A DNA stretch of 39,717 nt, taken from positions 1 to 39,717 of the forward strand of contig CAYSZX010000006.1 of NCBI GenBank assembly GCA_964435835.1, given 5' to 3'. The stretch comes from an uncultured Candidatus Saccharibacteria bacterium. Lineage in GTDB: Bacteria > Patescibacteriota > Minisyncoccia > Minisyncoccales > JANBVM01. The translations under genes were made by a program, and so were the position numbers. A model generated the notes under the pieces. The model saw only the letters and a program-made list of their open reading frames with translations. It was not told the origin of the DNA and did not search any database. Of this stretch, positions 10,496 to 26,666 are shown piece by piece; position 1 is the stretch's first letter; each line of letters opens with the position of its first letter.

Positions 10496-11447
10496 AAGCG
10501 ATAAAAAATCTAAAATTGTTTGTATGGGGGGAGGGAATGGAATGCCCAAAGCTGTTTTATTAGGTTTAAAAAAATATCCTTCTGTTAAAATTTCTGCTAT
10601 TTGTGCAATGCTAGATTCAGGGGGTTCTTCAGGAAGACTAAGAAAGGATTACAATATTGTTTCCCCTGGCGATATCAGGAGGGCTTTTATTGTTTTAGCT
10701 AATACCTCTCCAATTATAGAAGAACTTTTTAATTATAGGTTTCAGGCAGGAGAATTAGAAGGTCATAACTTTGCTAATTTGTTTATTACCGCTTTGGAAC
10801 TTTCTTCCAATAATTATGAGAAAGTAAGTGATGAAATTCATAAAATGTTAAATATCTCACACGAGGTTTTGCCTGCTACTCTTGATAATTCTCATGTTTG
10901 TGCAGAATTAGAAAATGGAAGAATAATCAAAGGAGAAACAAATATTGATATTCCAAAGCACAATAGTAAGGTGAAAATTAAAAAAGTGTTTTTAAAGCCA
11001 GAACCTAAAATTTACCCTAAAGCCCGGAAAGCAATTGAAGAAGCAGATTTAATAGTTATTGGACCTGGAGACCTTTATTCTTCTTTAGCTCAAGTATTAT
11101 TAGTTAAAGGAGCTTCAGAAGCTATTAGGAAAAGTAAAGCTAAAAAGGTTTACGTTTGTAATTTAATGACTAAAAAGGGCGAAACTGATAATTTCAAAGT
11201 TACTGATTTTACTGAAAAGATAGAAGCTTTTTTGGGCGGAGAAATGGATTATGTTCTTTATAATAACAAAAAGCCTTCTAAAAAGTCTCTGGAAGAAAAA
11301 AAGAAGAAATATCCTGAGCTAATAGAAATGGTTTCTTTTGATAAAGACTTAAATAAAGGTAAGTTTATTGGAAAAGACTTCTTAAATATGTCTAATTTAA
11401 ACCATGATTCGGATAAGTTATCTAAAACAATATTGTCTTTGATATGA
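10488..11447 (+). CDS. yvcK: YvcK/GlmR family (CofD-like) protein
   Basis: GGGNG, DSGGSSGRLR, PGDIRR, GHNFANL, GETNID, GPGDLYSS, NLMTKKGET. Confidence 0.92.
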   Translation: MNKSDKKSKIVCMGGGNGMPKAVLLGLKKYPSVKISAICAMLDSGGSSGRLRKDYNIVSPGDIRRAFIVLANTSPIIEELFNYRFQAGELEGHNFANLFITALELSSNNYEKVSDEIHKMLNISHEVLPATLDNSHVCAELENGRIIKGETNIDIPKHNSKVKIKKVFLKPEPKIYPKARKAIEEADLIVIGPGDLYSSLAQVLLVKGASEAIRKSKAKKVYVCNLMTKKGETDNFKVTDFTEKIEAFLGGEMDYVLYNNKKPSKKSLEEKKKKYPELIEMVSFDKDLNKGKFIGKDFLNMSNLNHDSDKLSKTILSLI

Positions 11448-12118
11448 AAGAAAAGTGGTTAGATAAAAATATTTCTTCTATCAAGATAATGGGTAAACCA
11501 TTATCCTTTTATGGAGAAACAAAATTGAAATATCCTTGGAGCTTATTAAAAATTAAAAATAAATTACTTGATGAATACTTAAAAAAAGAAATTAAAGATT
11601 CGGCTAAAATTTCTGAAAATGTTGTTGTGAGCGGCCCAGTTTATATTGGGGAGAATGTAATAATTAAAGAAAATGTTGTTGTGAACGGTCCTTCTTATAT
11701 CGGAAATAATTCTATTATTAAAAGTAATTGTGTTATTAGAAAATATTCTAACATTGAAAAAGATGCTTTAATCGGTTGTCATTCTGAAATTAAAAACTCT
11801 TTATTATTAGAAGATGTTCATCTTCATTTAAACTATATTGGTGATTCAATAATAGGGCGAGGGGCGAGGATCGGGGCAGGAACTATTACTGCCAATACAA
11901 GAATTGATCGAAAAGAAATCAAAAAAGATTTTAAAAAGTTAGGTTCTATTATTGGTAATAATGTAAAAATAGGCATTAATTGCTCTTTAATGCCGGGAAT
12001 ATTAATTGGTAAGAATTCAATAATTGGGTCACATTCATTAGTTTTAAAAGATGTAGGTTCAAATATTCTTTTTTATAACAAGAAGGAAAAGATAAAGGAA
12101 AAAATCAAAAAAAATTAG
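11444..12118 (+). CDS. Hexapeptide-repeat acetyltransferase (resembles the C-terminal half of archaeal-type GlmU)
   Basis: YPWSLL linker, left-handed beta-helix hexapeptides, SEIKNS, HLNYIGDSIIG, GAGTITAN.R, KLGSIIG. Confidence 0.85.
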   Translation: MKEKWLDKNISSIKIMGKPLSFYGETKLKYPWSLLKIKNKLLDEYLKKEIKDSAKISENVVVSGPVYIGENVIIKENVVVNGPSYIGNNSIIKSNCVIRKYSNIEKDALIGCHSEIKNSLLLEDVHLHLNYIGDSIIGRGARIGAGTITANTRIDRKEIKKDFKKLGSIIGNNVKIGINCSLMPGILIGKNSIIGSHSLVLKDVGSNILFYNKKEKIKEKIKKN

Positions 12119-12131
12119 TTACTTAGTTTGT

Positions 12132-12809
12132 TTAATTTATGAAAGGTTCTGCAATCTTCCTTTTACGTTCTAAGCAAGGAATATCAGGCTTATAATATAT
12201 CCAAGATAATAATTTAATAGAGTCTTTTTTTGCAAATCTTAATTTCCAAGTACTAGTGGTTTGATGAGGTTCTCGGGGTTTTCTTTCATACATTTGCCCT
12301 TTAATTTTTAGAAGCTCTATAATATAAGATCTTAACCAGTCCATGTGTTTTTTACTAGCAGACATAAATCTAACATATAAACGTGTGTAGATATACTTTG
12401 GATTTTTAAAAGTATTGTAGTGATCTTTATAGGTGAATATAGAACCATCTCCGTCTAGGTGACCTCGAAGAAAGTCTTTAAAGTACTTTTTCGGAATTCT
12501 CAATTTTTCAATTGTATATGTCTTTGCTGGGAATAGACCAATTTTTAATAACCATCTATAAAATTGAGCATCACTAAATTGTACTCTGTAGCAAGGTTTT
12601 TTAGCCCATTCACTGTTTTGAGAGCAAGCTATTTTGTTTGATAACCCCAGACACTTTTTGAATGTTTTCAGTAGTTGAACATCAGAAGATCTCATTATTA
12701 TGTGGCGCTTGTCTTTTGAAAGGTTTCCATCAGTTGTTATTAAACCTATTACATATGCTAAATCATTAGTCCATTTGAAATTTTTATCTGGTAATCTTTT
12801 TTTTGCCAT
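12132..12809 (-). CDS. Free-standing two-motif LAGLIDADG (intein/DOD-type) homing endonuclease, ~225 aa
   Basis: Motif 1 LAYVIGLITTDGN, motif 2 FLRGHLDGDGS, C-terminal LERK; no Hint/intein blocks. ATG 12809 is preferred over TTG 12890, which lies inside a hairpin region. Confidence 0.88.
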   Translation of the reverse strand: MAKKRLPDKNFKWTNDLAYVIGLITTDGNLSKDKRHIIMRSSDVQLLKTFKKCLGLSNKIACSQNSEWAKKPCYRVQFSDAQFYRWLLKIGLFPAKTYTIEKLRIPKKYFKDFLRGHLDGDGSIFTYKDHYNTFKNPKYIYTRLYVRFMSASKKHMDWLRSYIIELLKIKGQMYERKPREPHQTTSTWKLRFAKKDSIKLLSWIYYKPDIPCLERKRKIAEPFIN

Positions 12810-12834
12810 AAATAATTGTATCTTTATTTTACCA

Positions 12835-13140
12835 AGCTCGCACCTATTTTCAAAACAGATGAGCTGCCCTGCCGCCCACTCCGGCGGCAACCTCGCAGAA
12901 ATTTTCCCTTACAATTTTTCTTTTACGCTCCCCCTAATTTTTTTCAAAAAGGAAAGGGAAATTTCTGCTTGGTTCCGCCCTCCAAGTATTCGGGCAGGCG
13001 GAGTGCAAATGCAATTTGGGCTCGTTTTTTGAAACGGCGGGGTTTGGGTTTCCGTCGCGCAGGAGAGTGCGGGAGGGATGTGCGGCGGATATTGAATAAA
13101 ATCCGCCGCCCACTCCTTGGTTGGTTCTCAACCGCTAAGT
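12835..13140 (-). ncRNA. Candidate structured non-coding element (GC-rich, multi-hairpin) between tRNA-Leu and the LAGLIDADG gene
   Basis: Inverted repeats at 13082-13109, 13035-13057, 12973-13002, 12889-12974, 12870-12889 and 12835-12865; 12-bp direct repeat at 12871 and 13105. The family is not recognised, and the strand is inferred from the flanking genes. Confidence 0.5.
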
Positions 13141-13147
13141 TCCATAT

Positions 13148-13235
13148 TGGTGCCGAAGGAGGGAGTTGAACCCTCACGGGAGTTTAGCCCAGACGATTTT
13201 GAGTCGTCCCTGTCTGCCAGTTCCAGCACTTCGGC
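13148..13235 (-). tRNA. tRNA-Leu (CAA) with encoded CCA
   Basis: Acceptor GCCGAAG/CTTCGGC-A-CCA, anticodon arm GACGA-CTCAAAA-TCGTC, long variable arm, T arm GAGGG-TTCAACT-CCCTC. Confidence 0.97.
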
Positions 13236-13251
13236 GTTCAGTTTAAAATTA

Positions 13252-15303
13252 TCAGTTTTTGTCTTTTTTGTCTACAAACTTTTTGTACTTACAATCTTTA
13301 TCTGAACAATTAATGTACCCTCTCTTGTTTTCTAGAAGAGAGCCACATTTAGGGCATAATTCTCCTGTTGGCTCGTACCAGGAAGCAGCATCACATTTGG
13401 GCCATCGAGAACACCCATAAAAGGTTTTTCCTCTTTTAGTTCTTTTTTCAGTGATGTAACCTTTTTTGCATTTTGGACATTTTATTTTAAAGGCTCCTTC
13501 TTTTTCTATTGGTTTAGTATATTTACATTCGGGCCAGTTAGAACAAGCATAAAATTTACCATATTTTCCTAGTTTAATTATTAGAGGAGAATCACATTCA
13601 GGACACTTTTTGTCTGTTTTTTCGTGTCTTTCTTTTTTATGAGGAACTTCTTTACGTTTTTTCTTTAGGTTTTTAATAAAAGGATTATAAAAATCTTCAA
13701 TTATTTCTTTCCATTCTTCTTTTCCTTTCGCTATTTTATCTAAGTCTTCTTCCATTTCGGCAGTAAAATCAGTATCAACAATATCAGGAAAATGTTCAAT
13801 CAATATTTCGTTTACTGCTTCTCCTACTTCTGTTAACTCAAATCTTTTTCTTTTATTTTTTTCAACGTAATTTCTTGTTTGAATTGTTGACATTATTGTT
13901 GCGTAAGTAGAAGGTCGTCCTATTCCATTTTTTTCTAATTCTTTAATTAAAGTAGCTTCTGTATATCTGGCTGGTGGTTTAGTGAAGTGTTGTTCAGGAA
14001 TAACTTTAATTAATTCTAAGTCTTCTTTTTCCTTAAAATCAGGAAGAATTTTCTGTTTAAATTTAATTGAATAGACTTTTAAGAAACCGTCGAACTTTAA
14101 TGTCTGGCCGGTTATCTTTAAGAGATAATCTTTTTTATTCTTTGCCTCTATTTGAATTGTTAATCCGTCGAATATGGCAGGAGTCATTTGAGATGCAACA
14201 AATCTTTGCCAAATTAATTGATAGAGACGAAACTCTTTTTTCTTTAAATCTAATGATTTTGGTTTTTTCTTTATATCTGTTGGTCTGATTGCTTCATGAG
14301 CTTCTTGCGCTCCTTTTGATTTGTTTTTGTAAACTCTTTTTTTGTTCCAATATTTATCTCCATATTCTTCTTTAATAAATTCTTTAGCTGTAGAGAGAGC
14401 TTCTTTGGAAATATTGTAAGAGTCTGAGCGGTGATAAGTAATTAACCCCTTCTCATAAAGAGATTGAGCCAGTCCCATTGTGAATTTAGAAGCAAAGTGT
14501 AGTTTTCTCCAAGCACTTCTTTGTAAAGTAGATGTTTTGAAAGGAGGGAGAGGTCTTTTCTTTCTCTTTCTTTTTTTAATTTTTTTAACTTTGTATTCAG
14601 CTTTTTCTAAATCTTTTACAATTTCTTGAGCTTCTTTTTTTGTTTTAATTCCTTTTCTTGGAATTTTCTTCCCTTCTTTTTTATATAAAGAAGCTTCAAT
14701 TTTTTCTTTTTCCTTCTCTTTTTTAAGCATTGTATCAATGCTCCAATATTCTTGAGGCTTAAATTTTTCTCTTTCTTTTTTTCTGTCAGCTATCAGTTTA
14801 ACAGCTACTGATTGTACCCTTCCTGCTGACAATCCTCTTAATACTTTTTTCCAAAGAAAAGGGGAGAGTCTATAACCAACAATTCTGTCTAAAACTCTTC
14901 TTGCTTGCTGGGCATTTACTAGTTGCATGTCCATTAGGCGGGGATTTTTTAAAGCTTCTTTAATTGCTGATTCTGTAATTTCATGAAAAACAATTCTTTT
15001 TGGGTTTTTTAAATCTAAAATATGAGCAAGATGCCAAGCTATTGCTTCTCCTTCTCTGTCTGGATCCATAGCTAAGTAAACCTCATCCGCTTTTTTCTGA
15101 GATTTTTTAATTTTCTTAATTACCTTTCTTTTGTTTGGAAAAGTAACATATTTGGGAGTGAAATTATTTTTAATGTCAATTCCCAATTTCTTTTTAGGCA
15201 AGTCACGAATATGACCTACAGTGGCTACTATTTTGTAGTCTTTACCTAAAAACTTTTTGAGCGTTTTGCATTTCGTTGGGCTCTCAACAATAATTAATTT
15301 CAT
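13252..15303 (-). CDS. topA: DNA topoisomerase I
   Basis: IVESPTK, GHIRDL, DPDREGEAI, SAGRVQS, ITYHRSDS (catalytic Tyr), QEAHEAIRPT, GIGRPSTY, C-terminal Zn ribbons. Confidence 0.98.
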   Translation of the reverse strand: MKLIIVESPTKCKTLKKFLGKDYKIVATVGHIRDLPKKKLGIDIKNNFTPKYVTFPNKRKVIKKIKKSQKKADEVYLAMDPDREGEAIAWHLAHILDLKNPKRIVFHEITESAIKEALKNPRLMDMQLVNAQQARRVLDRIVGYRLSPFLWKKVLRGLSAGRVQSVAVKLIADRKKEREKFKPQEYWSIDTMLKKEKEKEKIEASLYKKEGKKIPRKGIKTKKEAQEIVKDLEKAEYKVKKIKKRKRKKRPLPPFKTSTLQRSAWRKLHFASKFTMGLAQSLYEKGLITYHRSDSYNISKEALSTAKEFIKEEYGDKYWNKKRVYKNKSKGAQEAHEAIRPTDIKKKPKSLDLKKKEFRLYQLIWQRFVASQMTPAIFDGLTIQIEAKNKKDYLLKITGQTLKFDGFLKVYSIKFKQKILPDFKEKEDLELIKVIPEQHFTKPPARYTEATLIKELEKNGIGRPSTYATIMSTIQTRNYVEKNKRKRFELTEVGEAVNEILIEHFPDIVDTDFTAEMEEDLDKIAKGKEEWKEIIEDFYNPFIKNLKKKRKEVPHKKERHEKTDKKCPECDSPLIIKLGKYGKFYACSNWPECKYTKPIEKEGAFKIKCPKCKKGYITEKRTKRGKTFYGCSRWPKCDAASWYEPTGELCPKCGSLLENKRGYINCSDKDCKYKKFVDKKDKN

Positions 15304-22277: not shown

Positions 22278-25200
22278 ATGGCAAAAATAAAAAAAGTTAA
22301 GAAGAGAGATGGCGCAATAGTTGATTTTAATAAAACAAAAATTAAAGATGCTGTTTACAAAGCTATCACTGCGGTAAAGCATGGAGATGGCAAAGATTCG
22401 CAAAAAATAACTGATAAAATAACGAAGCTTTTAGAAAGAAGATTTAAAAAAGATGAAATTCCAACAGTAGAACAGATACAAGATATTGTGGAAGAGGCTT
22501 TAATTTTAGAAGGTCTGGTCGAACCGGCCAAGGCTTTTATTTTATATAGAGAACAAAGAAGAAAAGTTAGAGAAGCAGTTGAGGTCAGCGAAAAAGCAGT
22601 AGACAGAATAGATGATTATTTAGGTAAGCTTGATTGGGAAATTCAGGAAAACGCCAATATGTCTTTTTCTTTGCAAGGATTAAACCGGTATGGAATTTCT
22701 TATATTGTTAAAAAATATTGGTTAAATAAAATTTATCCTGAGGAAATTAGGAAAGCTAATCAAAGCTGTGATTTGCATCTTCATAATTTAGATACTTTAG
22801 GCTGTTATACTTTTTTTGGACGAGAAGTTGTTGTAGCGAAATTAGGCAATAAGATTAGACTGGTATCCTTAAAAAATCTTTATGATGAGATAGAAAAAAA
22901 TGAAAAGCTTTTGAGCAAAAAAGATAAAGCTTTTGCTAAGTATCCCGATAATCTTTATGTTTTAGATAGAGATGGATGGACAAGAGTTAAGAGAATGGTT
23001 AGAAAGAAGAAACATAGAGAAATGCAATTTGTTAAATCAGAACAAGGAAGAAGCATTATTGTGACTGATAATCATCCTTTTATTGTTAAAAGAAATGATG
23101 AAGAAGTAGAGGTTGAGGCAAAAGACGTTAAAGAAAAGAAAGACTCTGCTTTTTCTGCTCATATCCCTTCTTTGCTTTCTGAGGAAGAACTTTTTCAGAA
23201 AGATCATATTTTCTTGGCGGAAGAACTTTTAGAAAATAATTATCAGAAATTTTTCCTGGATGGTTTTGAGTGGCAAGATTTTCAAGAAAATTGGGGAGGC
23301 TCTTCTGATGTTGAAGGAACATTAAGTACTTCTAATAGTGCTAATAGTTTAGATAATAAATTAGAACTTTCTGAAGATTTAGGTTATTTGGTAGGTATTT
23401 TTACTGCAGATGGTCATTATGATAGTTGGAGATTAGTGATTACTAATAATGATAAGCAAATTATTAAAAAAATTAGAAGAATTTGTTCTAATTTAGGAGC
23501 TAGAACTTATATCCGAGAAAATGAGAATAAAGCTACTCAAATTGCTATTTCTTCAAGTTCTTTAAAGCTTGTTTTTGAAAAAGTATTTAAGATAAAAGCT
23601 TTAAGTAAAAATAAAAACATTCCTCTTGATGTTTTGACCTATAATAAACGTTTTATTAAGGGTTTGATTGCAGGAATTATTGATGGTGATGGTTCGGTAG
23701 ATCCTGAAAACAAATCTCATTCTGCTTCTCAGATTGTTATTAGGGTTGTTTCTAGAACAATGCTGGAACAAGTAGCTACTTTGTTGCAGTTTTTCGGAAT
23801 TGTTGCCAGAAGTGGAGCAAATATTAGTGATATTGGAAAAACAAAAACTTTTAAGGGAAAAGAAATTACTCAAAATTATCCTCTTTATCGATTAAATTTT
23901 TCCAAGAAAAAGGGAGTTGATTTTCCTTCCTTTAAATATAAGCAAGCAAGAGCAACTAAAAAAAGTTGGCGGGCAGAAGAATATGATTGGAATAAGGTTT
24001 TGAATAGTAAATTTACCAAAATTGCCGATGATACAATTTTTGATATTACTACTGATTCTTCTACTTTTCTAGCTAATGGTTTATTAGTCCATAATTGTAT
24101 GGGGTGGGATCTATATGATCTTTTAAATAAAGGATTTGGAGGAGTTTCCGAAAAATTAGAATCTAAACCTCCTAAGCATTTTGGTGCAGCTTTAGGACAA
24201 ATTGTTAATTTTCTATATACTCTTCAGGGAGAATGTGCCGGAGCTGTGGCTCTTTCCAATTTTGATACTTTATTAGCTCCTTTTATTCGTTATGATAATT
24301 TGAATTACACGCAAGTAAAGCAGGCAATGCAGAGATTTCTTCATAACATGGCTGTTCCGACTCGAGTAGGATTCCAATGCTTATCGGAGGATACTGAAAT
24401 ATTAACTGCTGAAGGTTGGAAAGGACACGAGGAAATTAAAAAAGAAAATATTATTAAGACATTTAACTTGGAAAGCGGTGAGATTGAAGACAAGAAAGTA
24501 CTTAAGATGTTTTCAAGAGACTACAAGGGTAAAATGTACAGACTAAAAAACAGAATTCAAGACCAGCTGATTTCTCCCGAGCATAGGGTTGTAAGAAAAA
24601 AGTTTAATACAGAAAATTATACATTAGAGCCAATTGAAGAAACTACAAAATTGAAATCTCCTTTTATTATTCCGATTGCTGGCAAAAATTCTAATCCTGA
24701 TACTGATATTAGTGATGAGCAAATAAAGTTAATGGCTTGGATTATTAGTGAAGGCTCTATTGAAAAACCAGGTAAAAACTATCGATCTTGTCATAGGGTT
24801 AGTATTTATCAATCTAGAATAAAGAATAAGGAGAATTATGAAGAAATAATTAATTTATTTCAACACTTTGGTTTTGAATATACTGATCGCCCTCAACTTG
24901 GTTTAGGGGAAGAAGTAAGACATCTAAGACTAAATGCCGAAAGCTCAAAGGAAATTCATCAATGGTTTGGAAGTAAAGAAAATGTTCATTTTATTCCTGA
25001 TTGCTTGTTGGATTTAAGCCAGAGACAATCGAGATTATTCTTAGAGACTTATTTAAAGGCAGATGGTAGTGAAGATTGTAAAATTGCCACTATTAGGCCG
25101 GCTTTAATTGATGATTTACAAAGAATAGTTGTTAATGCTGGTTATGGATTTACTGTTTTAAAAAGAAAACCTCTGGGGGTTGGAAAAAAATATCTTTATA

Positions 25201-26666
25201 TTCTAAGGATAATTCGCCACAAAGAAACCTATATTTCAAAAGTAGAAAAGGTTGATTATGAAGGAACTATCTGGTGTCCTACTACTGAGAATGGAACTTT
25301 AATAGCTAGAAGAAAAGGTAAAGTTTTCGTGACTGGAAATTGTCCTTTTACAAATGTTACTTTAGACTTAAAACCATCGGCAGTTTTTGCTGATCAGCCA
25401 GTTATTATTGGCGGCAAACCTCAGGAAGAGACTTATGGAGAATTTGAATCTGAAATGCAGCTTTTAATTAAAGCTTTTTACGAAGTTATTTTGCAGGGAG
25501 ATAAAAGCGGTAGACCTTTTCATTTTCCGATTCCAACAATTAATATTACTAAAGATTTTCCATGGGGAAGTGAATCAGCTGATTTAATTTTTAAAGCTTC
25601 AGCTAAGTACGGAACTAATTATTTTGCTAATTACATTAATTCAGAAATGAAACCTTCTGACGTTCGCAGTATGTGTTGTAGGCTGAGGCTTGACTTAAAA
25701 GATTTGCATAACAGAGGTGGAGGAGGATTGTTTGGAGCGGGCTCTTTAACTGGTAGTATTGGAGTAGTAACAATTAATTTACCGAGAATTGCTTATCTTT
25801 CTAAAACTAAGAAGGAATTTTTAGAGAGATTGGAAAAATTGATGGATTTAGCAAAAGAAAGTTTGGAGATCAAGAGAAAGAGTTTAGAAGATTATATTGA
25901 AAAAGGTCTTTATCCTTATTCTAGATTTTATTTATCAAAGGTGAAAAAGATGAGGGGTGGTTATTATGCTAATCATTTCTCTACTATTGGTTTGGTTGGA
26001 ATGAATGAAACCTGTTTGAACTTTTTAGGAAAGGATATTGCTACAAAGAAAGGGCAGAAGCTATCTTTAAGTATTATGGATTTTATGAGAGATAAACTTA
26101 AAGAATATCAAGAAGGAACAGGTCATATTTATAATTTGGAAGCTACACCAGCTGAATCAACTGCTTATCGGTTAGCTATTGCTGACAAGGCAAAATATCC
26201 CGACATTATTACAGCTGGGACAGAAGATAATCCTTATTACACTAATTCTACCCAATTACCTGTTAATTATACTACTGATGCTTTTGAAGCTTTGGATCTT
26301 CAAGATGAACTTCAGTGTAAATATACGGGCGGCACTGTCGAACACCTATTTTTAGGCGAGAGAATTAAAGAAGTTAAAAGTGCAAAGAAGTTAGTTAAAA
26401 CTGTTTTTGAAAAATATCATTTACCCTATATTACTTTAACTCCAACTTTCTCAATTTGTCCTGTTCATGGTTATCTTTCCGGCGAACACTTTACTTGTCC
26501 AAAATGTGCTATTGAACAGCCCTGTGAAGTTTATTCCAGAATTGTCGGTTATTTAAGGCCAGTTAAAGAATGGAATGAAGGAAAGAAGCAGGAGTATAAG
26601 GAAAGGAAGGAGTTTAAAAATAAAGAATCTATATCTAAAGCCAATACTTCATTAGATTTATCATGA
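22278..26666 (+). CDS. nrdD: Class III anaerobic ribonucleoside-triphosphate reductase with ATP cone and two inteins (~712 aa after splicing)
   Basis: ATP cone VKKRDG...VEQIQD.VE, RSMCCRL finger loop, NLEATPAES, Zn ribbon CPVH...CPKC, glycyl radical motif YSRIVGY. Confidence 0.96.
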   Translation: MAKIKKVKKRDGAIVDFNKTKIKDAVYKAITAVKHGDGKDSQKITDKITKLLERRFKKDEIPTVEQIQDIVEEALILEGLVEPAKAFILYREQRRKVREAVEVSEKAVDRIDDYLGKLDWEIQENANMSFSLQGLNRYGISYIVKKYWLNKIYPEEIRKANQSCDLHLHNLDTLGCYTFFGREVVVAKLGNKIRLVSLKNLYDEIEKNEKLLSKKDKAFAKYPDNLYVLDRDGWTRVKRMVRKKKHREMQFVKSEQGRSIIVTDNHPFIVKRNDEEVEVEAKDVKEKKDSAFSAHIPSLLSEEELFQKDHIFLAEELLENNYQKFFLDGFEWQDFQENWGGSSDVEGTLSTSNSANSLDNKLELSEDLGYLVGIFTADGHYDSWRLVITNNDKQIIKKIRRICSNLGARTYIRENENKATQIAISSSSLKLVFEKVFKIKALSKNKNIPLDVLTYNKRFIKGLIAGIIDGDGSVDPENKSHSASQIVIRVVSRTMLEQVATLLQFFGIVARSGANISDIGKTKTFKGKEITQNYPLYRLNFSKKKGVDFPSFKYKQARATKKSWRAEEYDWNKVLNSKFTKIADDTIFDITTDSSTFLANGLLVHNCMGWDLYDLLNKGFGGVSEKLESKPPKHFGAALGQIVNFLYTLQGECAGAVALSNFDTLLAPFIRYDNLNYTQVKQAMQRFLHNMAVPTRVGFQCLSEDTEILTAEGWKGHEEIKKENIIKTFNLESGEIEDKKVLKMFSRDYKGKMYRLKNRIQDQLISPEHRVVRKKFNTENYTLEPIEETTKLKSPFIIPIAGKNSNPDTDISDEQIKLMAWIISEGSIEKPGKNYRSCHRVSIYQSRIKNKENYEEIINLFQHFGFEYTDRPQLGLGEEVRHLRLNAESSKEIHQWFGSKENVHFIPDCLLDLSQRQSRLFLETYLKADGSEDCKIATIRPALIDDLQRIVVNAGYGFTVLKRKPLGVGKKYLYILRIIRHKETYISKVEKVDYEGTIWCPTTENGTLIARRKGKVFVTGNCPFTNVTLDLKPSAVFADQPVIIGGKPQEETYGEFESEMQLLIKAFYEVILQGDKSGRPFHFPIPTINITKDFPWGSESADLIFKASAKYGTNYFANYINSEMKPSDVRSMCCRLRLDLKDLHNRGGGGLFGAGSLTGSIGVVTINLPRIAYLSKTKKEFLERLEKLMDLAKESLEIKRKSLEDYIEKGLYPYSRFYLSKVKKMRGGYYANHFSTIGLVGMNETCLNFLGKDIATKKGQKLSLSIMDFMRDKLKEYQEGTGHIYNLEATPAESTAYRLAIADKAKYPDIITAGTEDNPYYTNSTQLPVNYTTDAFEALDLQDELQCKYTGGTVEHLFLGERIKEVKSAKKLVKTVFEKYHLPYITLTPTFSICPVHGYLSGEHFTCPKCAIEQPCEVYSRIVGYLRPVKEWNEGKKQEYKERKEFKNKESISKANTSLDLS
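22809..24095 (+). mobile_element. Intein 1 in NrdD (429 aa, LAGLIDADG endonuclease, apparent Thr1)
   Basis: Starts TFFGREVVV; block B VTDNHPF; LVGIFTADG and IAGIIDGDG motifs; block F/G IFDITT...FLANGLLVHN|C. Removal restores LGCY-CMGWDL. Confidence 0.92.
24378..25340 (+). mobile_element. Intein 2 in NrdD (321 aa, LAGLIDADG-like, ends GN)
   Basis: Starts CLSEDTEILT; block B ISPEHRV; MAWIISEG and LETYLKADG motifs; IWCPTT.NG...VFVTGN|C. Removal restores TRVGFQ-CPFTN. Confidence 0.93.

Follow-up and report, generated by a model that had tools for sequence, protein, structure and literature searches.

The stretch of DNA analysed here (hereafter the window) comprises 39,717 nucleotides of contig CAYSZX010000006.1 from an uncultured Candidatus Saccharibacteria bacterium, and carries on its minus strand a transfer RNA gene, tRNA-Leu(CAA), followed by a GC-rich noncoding tract and by an open reading frame (ORF) of the LAGLIDADG superfamily. 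With a probability of roughly 0.8, this arrangement is explained by two independent selfish elements nested at the 3' end of the one tRNA-Leu(CAA), namely a homing-endonuclease gene and the remnant of a large serine recombinase (LSR) element. The nesting of two elements at a single tRNA, with the promoter of the remnant placed before the endonuclease gene, is particular to the window. The original prediction, made from the sequence by itself, had instead joined the structured RNA and the nuclease in one module, in which the RNA would be released from the tRNA transcript and serve the nuclease as a cofactor, translational regulator or mobility signal. The modules of the tract were found to belong to an LSR element, and the tract is therefore a passenger and not a cofactor of the nuclease.

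The three parts themselves are real, as assessed with ARAGORN, Rfam, GC content, folding and Pfam. The 225-residue ORF matches Pfam LAGLIDADG_3 with 32.8 bits (cut-off 22.5) and contains two motifs, LAYVIGLITTDG and FLRGHLDGDG; D27/G28, D119-G122 and K96, which include both catalytic aspartates and the motif glycines, are invariant across 19 family members. The AlphaFold2 model of the protein (predicted local distance difference test score 89.7, predicted template-modelling score 0.87) matched 140 Protein Data Bank (PDB) chains in Foldseek at E <= 0.001. The top-ranked matches listed are LAGLIDADG folds, comprising homing endonucleases/meganucleases, intein endonucleases, the bI3 maturase and WhiA, the best being I-Tsp061I (PDB 2dch; E = 1.7e-10, TM-score 0.68). 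From sequence and model, the latter showing the two-fold alpha-beta-beta-alpha-beta-beta-alpha fold, the ORF is predicted to encode a monomeric two-motif LAGLIDADG homing endonuclease with its active-site residues retained. As had been claimed from the sequence, Pfam detected no Hint or intein domain in the ORF, and Rfam detected no intron family around it (E <= 10, 11500-14000). The ORF is free-standing, since it lies between the tRNA gene and a convergent gene.

The loci of this family are the borders of tRNA-Leu genes, and members of the clade of the window almost always start 0-36 nt after tRNA-Leu(CAA). Matches to the ORF at E <= 1e-10 are present in 18 of 61 genomes (60 related genomes and that of the window), with up to four in some, and a co-oriented tRNA, mostly tRNA-Leu, lies 0-20 nt from the ORF in 15 of the 17 loci of the related genomes; the proteins of the two loci without one (L035 and L036) are the most divergent. 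Searching metagenome contigs with the 225-residue protein alone gave no relative, and a second search, with the family alignment A2, recovered 80 loci. In 74 of these, as the proposed link to tRNA genes had implied, a co-oriented tRNA-Leu is found at most 36 nt from the ORF, while the remaining six reach a contig edge or lack the flank; where at least 150 nt of flank are available on both sides, the adjacency holds without exception (62/62). Position follows clade in both sets of loci. Metagenome proteins 49-75% identical to that of the window sit directly 3' of tRNA-Leu(CAA), at 0-36 nt, in all 12 cases with upstream flank (a thirteenth protein of at least 49% identity, in L158, begins at the contig end), as do those of the relatives L020 (8 nt) and L021 (6 nt). 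The clade of 37-50% identity is located directly 5' of tRNA-Leu(GAG, CAG or TAG), and that of 25-35% identity within a tRNA-Cys/tRNA-Leu(UAA) pair. No obvious Shine-Dalgarno sequence was seen in the tRNA-to-ORF spacers examined, including that of L150.

Two lines of evidence identify the endonuclease gene as an insertion. Eleven tRNA-Leu(CAA)-clade loci extend far enough downstream for comparison, and in three of them an orphan tRNA-Leu fragment made up of the T arm and acceptor follows right after the endonuclease stop codon (L148, 2176-2210; L151, 2179-2212; L153, 2167-2215). These fragments represent an allele other than that of the functional upstream tRNA-Leu, and at least part of the clade has therefore inserted into the tRNA gene, carrying a replacement 3' end. 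Furthermore, topA lies upstream of tRNA-Leu(CAA) on the same strand in the window, and both same-genus genomes (G001 and G002) keep topA followed by tRNA-Leu(CAA), with neither tract nor ORF at the syntenic site: in G002 (L039) the next gene begins 6 nt past the tRNA, and in G001 (L040) a terminator-like hairpin precedes an unrelated 162-residue ORF. Presence in the window and absence from both syntenic sites mark the cassette as an insertion, and the ORF, found at the same tRNA in other families and absent from both same-genus genomes, shows a presence/absence polymorphism at a fixed site. The nuclease gene thus deserves its initial description as a tRNA-linked selfish cassette. The two same-genus tRNA genes end in GGCAC^AT and GGCAC^AA (the caret marks the junction here and below) and encode no CCA, whereas that of the window ends in GGCACCA^ATATGG. 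The tRNA of the window also differs from both orthologues, which are alike, in the D, anticodon, variable and T arms. This divergent allele fits co-conversion with the endonuclease gene without proving it; no close donor was present among the 24 tRNA-Leu(CAA) genes compared.

The gene beside tRNA-Leu(CAA) varies across the three genomes of the genus, being a hexapeptide-repeat transferase gene in the window, a 330-residue ORF resembling a polyprenyl synthetase by eye in G002, and in G001 the extra 162-residue ORF before the hexapeptide transferase. The flank of this tRNA is a hot spot of change in the genus.

Domestication of the LAGLIDADG protein for a maturase-like or regulatory role in tRNA-Leu biology, as opposed to a selfish one, would account for the strict linkage and co-orientation of the family with tRNA-Leu and for the appearance of bI3 maturase and WhiA among the structural matches. 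It is nonetheless improbable in view of the patchy distribution, with variable copy number and vacant same-genus syntenic sites, of the invariance of both catalytic aspartates, and of the orphan tRNA fragments that mark insertion behind the ORF.

Table 1. Features of the tRNA-Leu(CAA) locus, in window coordinates.
Feature	Position	Strand	Basis
tRNA-Leu(CAA), intact, with encoded CCA	13148..13235	-	ARAGORN; Rfam tRNA, 49.8 bits
Noncoding GC-rich tract, 338 nt	12810-13147	-	GC windows and folding
Left junction (attL-like, GGCAC^CAATATGGAAC) and module A	13107..13147	-	LSR element end; antisense encodes the last LSR codons
Tract middle (nt 42-146), GC-rich hairpins	13002..13106	-	Fold; inverted repeat I3
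Module B, conserved multi-helix structure	12863..13001	-	Alignment A1
Module C, predicted outward promoter and right junction (attR-like, GATAC^AATT, at about 12818/12817)	12818..12862	-	Promoter scan
Two-motif LAGLIDADG ORF, 225 residues plus stop, intact	12132..12809	-	ATG at 12809, stop at 12132-12134; Pfam LAGLIDADG_3

The tract (Table 1) has a GC content of 0.41-0.55 in 100-nt windows, compared with 0.22-0.35 in the flanking genes, and its minus-strand RNA folds with -120.5 kcal/mol (z = -4.92), a stability reached by none of 100 shuffles. No Rfam family matched it at E <= 10, as had been anticipated, which rules out a group I/II intron and also HEARO. Module B contains a hairpin CUGCCC-GAAUACUUGGA-GGGCGG, a long hairpin of ~20 bp and a short GC hairpin, and is 77-82% identical to copies in L049, L053, L055-L057, L094 and L105; module C is 84% identical to that of L056/L057/L094. 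Eleven distinct copies of modules B-C, a small sample in which some rows are close relatives, were aligned (alignment A1), while copies with runs of N in the structured region (L050, ~1420-1700; L132, 1444-1453) were unusable. On this alignment RNAalifold proposed 36 pairs, compensatory changes occur at 11 of these, and pairing is kept in 93.9% of the cells of the consensus structure. Control shuffles gave 4.4+-1.3 compensatory pairs, none of 500 reaching 11, and moving the partners by 1-3 columns left at most five. The 27 G-U cells of 395 would mispair on the opposite strand, and the structure is therefore likely to reside on the strand reading towards the promoter. The covariation that had been proposed as a check on the tract is thus borne out, and together with the lack of an Rfam match it reveals a real structured element, albeit one of another mobile element. 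Within module C, a sigma-70-type promoter (TTGAAA, 16 nt, TG-TAAAAT, 12853->12826; scan score 10/12 with TG), the hexamers of which are conserved in alignment A1, faces the endonuclease gene with its -10 box ~17 nt upstream of the start codon. The captured promoter of module C probably drives that gene.

The identity of this other mobile element emerged when 401 genomes of the same order were searched at the DNA level; pieces of the tract occur in 17, that of the window included. Nucleotides 3-41 of the tract recur with 95-100% identity immediately downstream of tRNA-Arg, tRNA-Leu(UAA) and tRNA-Leu(CAA) genes in L051, L052 and L054, from three other families. An exact-pattern scan for this element end, covering 185,579 species genomes, retrieved 63 copies in 61 loci, mostly from metagenome-assembled genomes of the Patescibacteria group by title, with few labelled otherwise. 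Fifty-five of the 63 copies sit 4 nt after a co-oriented tRNA (tRNA-Leu in 35 cases), at a junction reading ..GCAC CA(G/A)AAT^GGAAC, i.e. ..GCAC^CA(G/A)AATGGAAC; four further copies are joined to module C of the tract (..TACAATAGAGACACCAGAAT^GGAAC), and the last four follow tRNA-3'-end-like sequence uncalled by ARAGORN. Seventeen loci extend at least 900 nt beyond the element end, and eight of them carry an LSR gene on the opposite strand. In these full relatives the protein contains Resolvase, Recombinase and Zn_ribbon_recom domains, and its reading frame crosses the inverted module A to the tRNA junction, finishing ..HSLVGSQPLSSILV. Correspondingly, the plus strand of the window from 13117 encodes VGSQPLSSILV, an 11-residue relic of the tail of the L094 LSR. 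The observation that the locus lacks an integrase therefore stands as regards an intact gene, there being no recombinase ORF, but overlooked this relic. Nucleotides ~147-338 of the tract (modules B and C) are 77-88% identical to the region just upstream of the LSR gene in L094, L101, L116, G209, G247, G273 and G305. The same region also terminates the element on its far side, where it reads ..GACAC^flank, as in the right junctions of L056, L057, L061, L094, L096 and L132. Rfam returned only sub-threshold chance matches on the corresponding upstream region of the full element (L094, 3700-4450).

Structured-end copies of ~230-380 bp also occur as outward-facing inverted repeats (G209:C3:78346-80975, i.e. 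L083+L071; L094, 1066-4211), bracketing 2.4 kb of cargo beside the LSR gene, with similar pairs in G167, G247 and G329. The G209 cargo comprises ORFs of 269 and 331 residues, by eye a membrane protein and a helix-turn-helix-like protein, and that of L094 two bPH_2 proteins and one more ORF. Many element-end copies (L086-L146) lie 30-150 nt from a contig end, so that assemblies tend to break inside the element, as expected for repeated or population-variable sequence. In L057 (816-1700; G133), a copy of modules B-C shares its strand with a 23S rRNA gene that follows ~500 nt downstream, a geometry in which the outward promoter points at that gene. In L088, L103, L121 and L141, a tRNA-Leu or the tRNA-Cys/tRNA-Leu pair has a LAGLIDADG gene of the 5' clade just upstream and module A at its 3' end; other genomes thus also bring the endonuclease and LSR families together at shared tRNA genes. 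Finally, tRNA-Arg(TCG) in the window's own genome (G000:C8:1705-1780, minus strand) ends GGCACCA^ATATTAAAAC, of which nine bases, CACCAATAT, equal the left junction of the tract; the same family of elements may have left a scar there, or may find in it a ready-made target.

The boundary between the two elements is defined by L150, in which an ORF 70% identical to that of the window stands without the tract. After its right junction the window reads GATAC^AATTATTTATG (aattatttATG). L150 reads GGCAC^AATTCAATTTATG, and its tRNA-to-ORF spacer, ggcac^aattcaatttATG, matches the post-junction spacer of the window, which places the entry point of the element precisely between the tRNA and an endonuclease gene that was already there. 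According to tblastn, no LSR gene remains in the window or in its genome (538 kb in 19 contigs, 96% complete), nor does that genome hold a second copy of any tract module; it follows that the 340 bp represent either a remnant or a non-autonomous derivative. Module A has been reduced to 41 nt of ~160 nt.

These distributions bear directly on the reading of RNA and nuclease as one module. It was attractive because the three parts are adjacent on the same strand, because the tract is strongly structured and partly covarying, and because the ORF starts shortly after a promoter-like -10 box. However, the tract and its modules are absent from all 97 other endonuclease loci (0/17 in relatives and 0/80 in metagenomes), 14 members of the same tRNA-Leu(CAA) clade among them. 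Conversely, the modules recur without a LAGLIDADG gene in at least 20 of the 401 genomes of the order, several times beside an LSR gene, which is the independent occurrence that the original prediction had itself named as refuting it. Moreover, LAGLIDADG enzymes recognise DNA through protein contacts, and to our knowledge none is RNA-guided. The one-module reading is largely refuted by distribution, and it is now hardly credible that the tract serves the nuclease as a cofactor, a regulator or a mobility signal.

On the other hand, the tract might be more than debris of an LSR element. It could be a working non-autonomous mini-element that co-resident LSRs are able to move, or its module B RNA could have been kept for a function such as blocking tRNA read-through or stabilising the transcript. 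Junction-like sequence is kept at both ends, the pairing of module B is preserved with few G-U cells, and a second short tRNA-A-C version of the element was observed in L132. In run X1 from the source community, the summed contig depth is 29-37x over modules B/C, compared with ~5.7x in the flanks, and sequence variants are present; other copies therefore exist in that community and appear to circulate. The missing LSR gene, the departure of both junction cores from consensus, the single copy of the tract in the genome and the truncation of module A nevertheless make this a possible but unlikely alternative to an inert remnant. Similarly tentative is the proposal that module B represents an undescribed class of functional structured RNA belonging to the tRNA-end LSR elements of Patescibacteria, in which it might contribute to recombinase expression, to the direction of recombination or to insulation of the outward promoter. 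In the window it would have been kept because it still works after being transcribed along with tRNA-Leu and released by processing of the tRNA 3' end, and together with the captured promoter it would replace a tRNA-punctuated, leaderless mode of expression. An essential RNA (RNase P, tmRNA, 6S or signal recognition particle RNA) was set aside, the same-genus genomes having neither the tract at the syntenic site nor a DNA match to it, with no genome-wide family search made; ARAGORN with its tmRNA option called no tmRNA in the window.

Under the preferred reading of two nested elements, the endonuclease would cut ORF-less alleles of tRNA-Leu(CAA), and their repair would copy in the gene together with a replacement 3' part of the tRNA. 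Members of the family would normally rely on transcription that continues past the tRNA, and tRNA processing would release their near-leaderless mRNAs. An LSR element targeting tRNA 3' ends in ...GCAC would later have integrated at GGCAC^AATT, between the tRNA and the endonuclease gene, probably supplying the CA of the encoded CCA, and would then have lost its recombinase and cargo. The ~340 bp left would comprise the left junction with the antisense LSR tail, the structured covarying module, and the outward promoter with the right junction. This promoter may now drive the endonuclease gene with a leader of ~10 nt.

Several observations weigh against this reconstruction. The order of the insertions, with the endonuclease gene first, is deduced from their geometry; the cleavage activity and target site of the nuclease are predictions, and transcription, tRNA processing and promoter use at the locus are deduced from sequence. 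No orphan tRNA fragment follows the ORF of the window itself (score 7, compared with a shuffle mean of 8.2). The middle of the tract, nt 42-146, has no homologue in the 60 relatives, and only one 18-nt chance-level match in the 401 genomes of the order. Both junction cores of the window are off consensus (CAATAT instead of CAGAAT, and GATAC instead of GACAC). Conservation with covariation in module B points to a function, for which a mere scar would have no use. Finally, in three DNA runs from one study of the source community, no empty-site contig was found and no contig spans the whole stretch.

Elsewhere in the window, the hexapeptide-repeat transferase gene (11444-12118) is convergent with the LAGLIDADG ORF, with 13 nt between the two. 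A 1462-residue anaerobic ribonucleotide reductase (ATP-cone and NRDD; 22278-26666, plus strand) is split by an intein with a LAGLIDADG_3 endonuclease domain, the sole other LAGLIDADG match in the genome. Repeats within the window are limited to short pairs, including a 12-nt direct repeat, GGAGTGGGCGGC. The Rfam scan by E value (E <= 10) covered 11500-14000; a scan of the whole window at gathering thresholds gave no match, not even to the tRNA, the gathering score of which is 29, and this looks like a filter quirk rather than biology.

Among known systems, SegB of phage T4 is a free-standing GIY-YIG homing endonuclease encoded in the T4 tRNA gene cluster and is reported to promote the inheritance of its own tRNA region (PMC2330249). 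It shares with the family of the window a stand-alone endonuclease gene among tRNA genes, with no intron or intein. It is a GIY-YIG enzyme of a phage, whereas here a LAGLIDADG enzyme is encoded on a bacterial chromosome, by a family that keeps to tRNA-Leu at spacings of 0-36 nt and that in some loci has a duplicated tRNA end. In bacteria of the candidate phyla radiation, rRNA genes carry insertions encoding LAGLIDADG endonucleases, LAGLIDADG_3 proteins included, often within group I/II introns (PMC11270868). The host group and superfamily are the same, and in both cases the genes land at highly conserved RNA genes, but those insertions lie inside rRNA genes, and the ORF of the window lies outside the mature tRNA and in no intron. 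The word 'tRNA' is absent from the main text of that report. I-Tsp061I and I-DmoI resemble the protein of the window in size (~200-225 residues) and in carrying two motifs on one chain, I-Tsp061I being also the best sequence match (E = 1.3e-4); the identity is only ~16%, and they are archaeal, intron-encoded enzymes that target rRNA genes.

Integrative elements driven by LSRs are exemplified by phiC31, Bxb1 and TnpX. Tycheposons are reportedly integrative elements found at tRNA genes (10.1101/2020.12.28.424599). The full relatives of the tract share with LSR elements a protein of Resolvase, Recombinase and Zn-ribbon domains and a defined junction at a conserved host gene. They differ in targeting the extreme 3' end of many tRNA genes, in the recombinase frame that crosses the junction, and in their long GC-rich structured inverted end copies; the window holds an ORF-less remnant. 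HEARO and the omegaRNAs of IscB and TnpB likewise place a structured RNA region beside a nuclease gene in mobile DNA, but the tract has no Rfam HEARO match and accompanies the nuclease at 0/97 loci. LAGLIDADG genes beside bacterial tRNA-Leu genes were not found in the full texts searched, and the tables of PMC11270868, which lay outside that search, could list non-rRNA LAGLIDADG proteins; nor were tRNA-end LSR elements of Patescibacteria found in full texts, supplements lying outside the search.

The attractive idea of an RNA-associated LAGLIDADG nuclease is removed as wrong by the analysis of this locus, which offers instead a clean example of the leftover promoter of one element lying before the gene of another. 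In these ultra-small bacteria, at least two kinds of selfish DNA compete to settle at the borders of tRNA-Leu genes: a LAGLIDADG family that needs neither intron nor intein and parks just outside the mature tRNA, with a spare tRNA end in some loci, and an LSR element that plugs into the final bases of tRNA genes. Both enzyme families have long, natural and highly conserved target sites, and provide raw material for genome engineering. If the endonuclease genes are indeed expressed through tRNA processing, they would represent a bacterial counterpart of mitochondrial tRNA punctuation.

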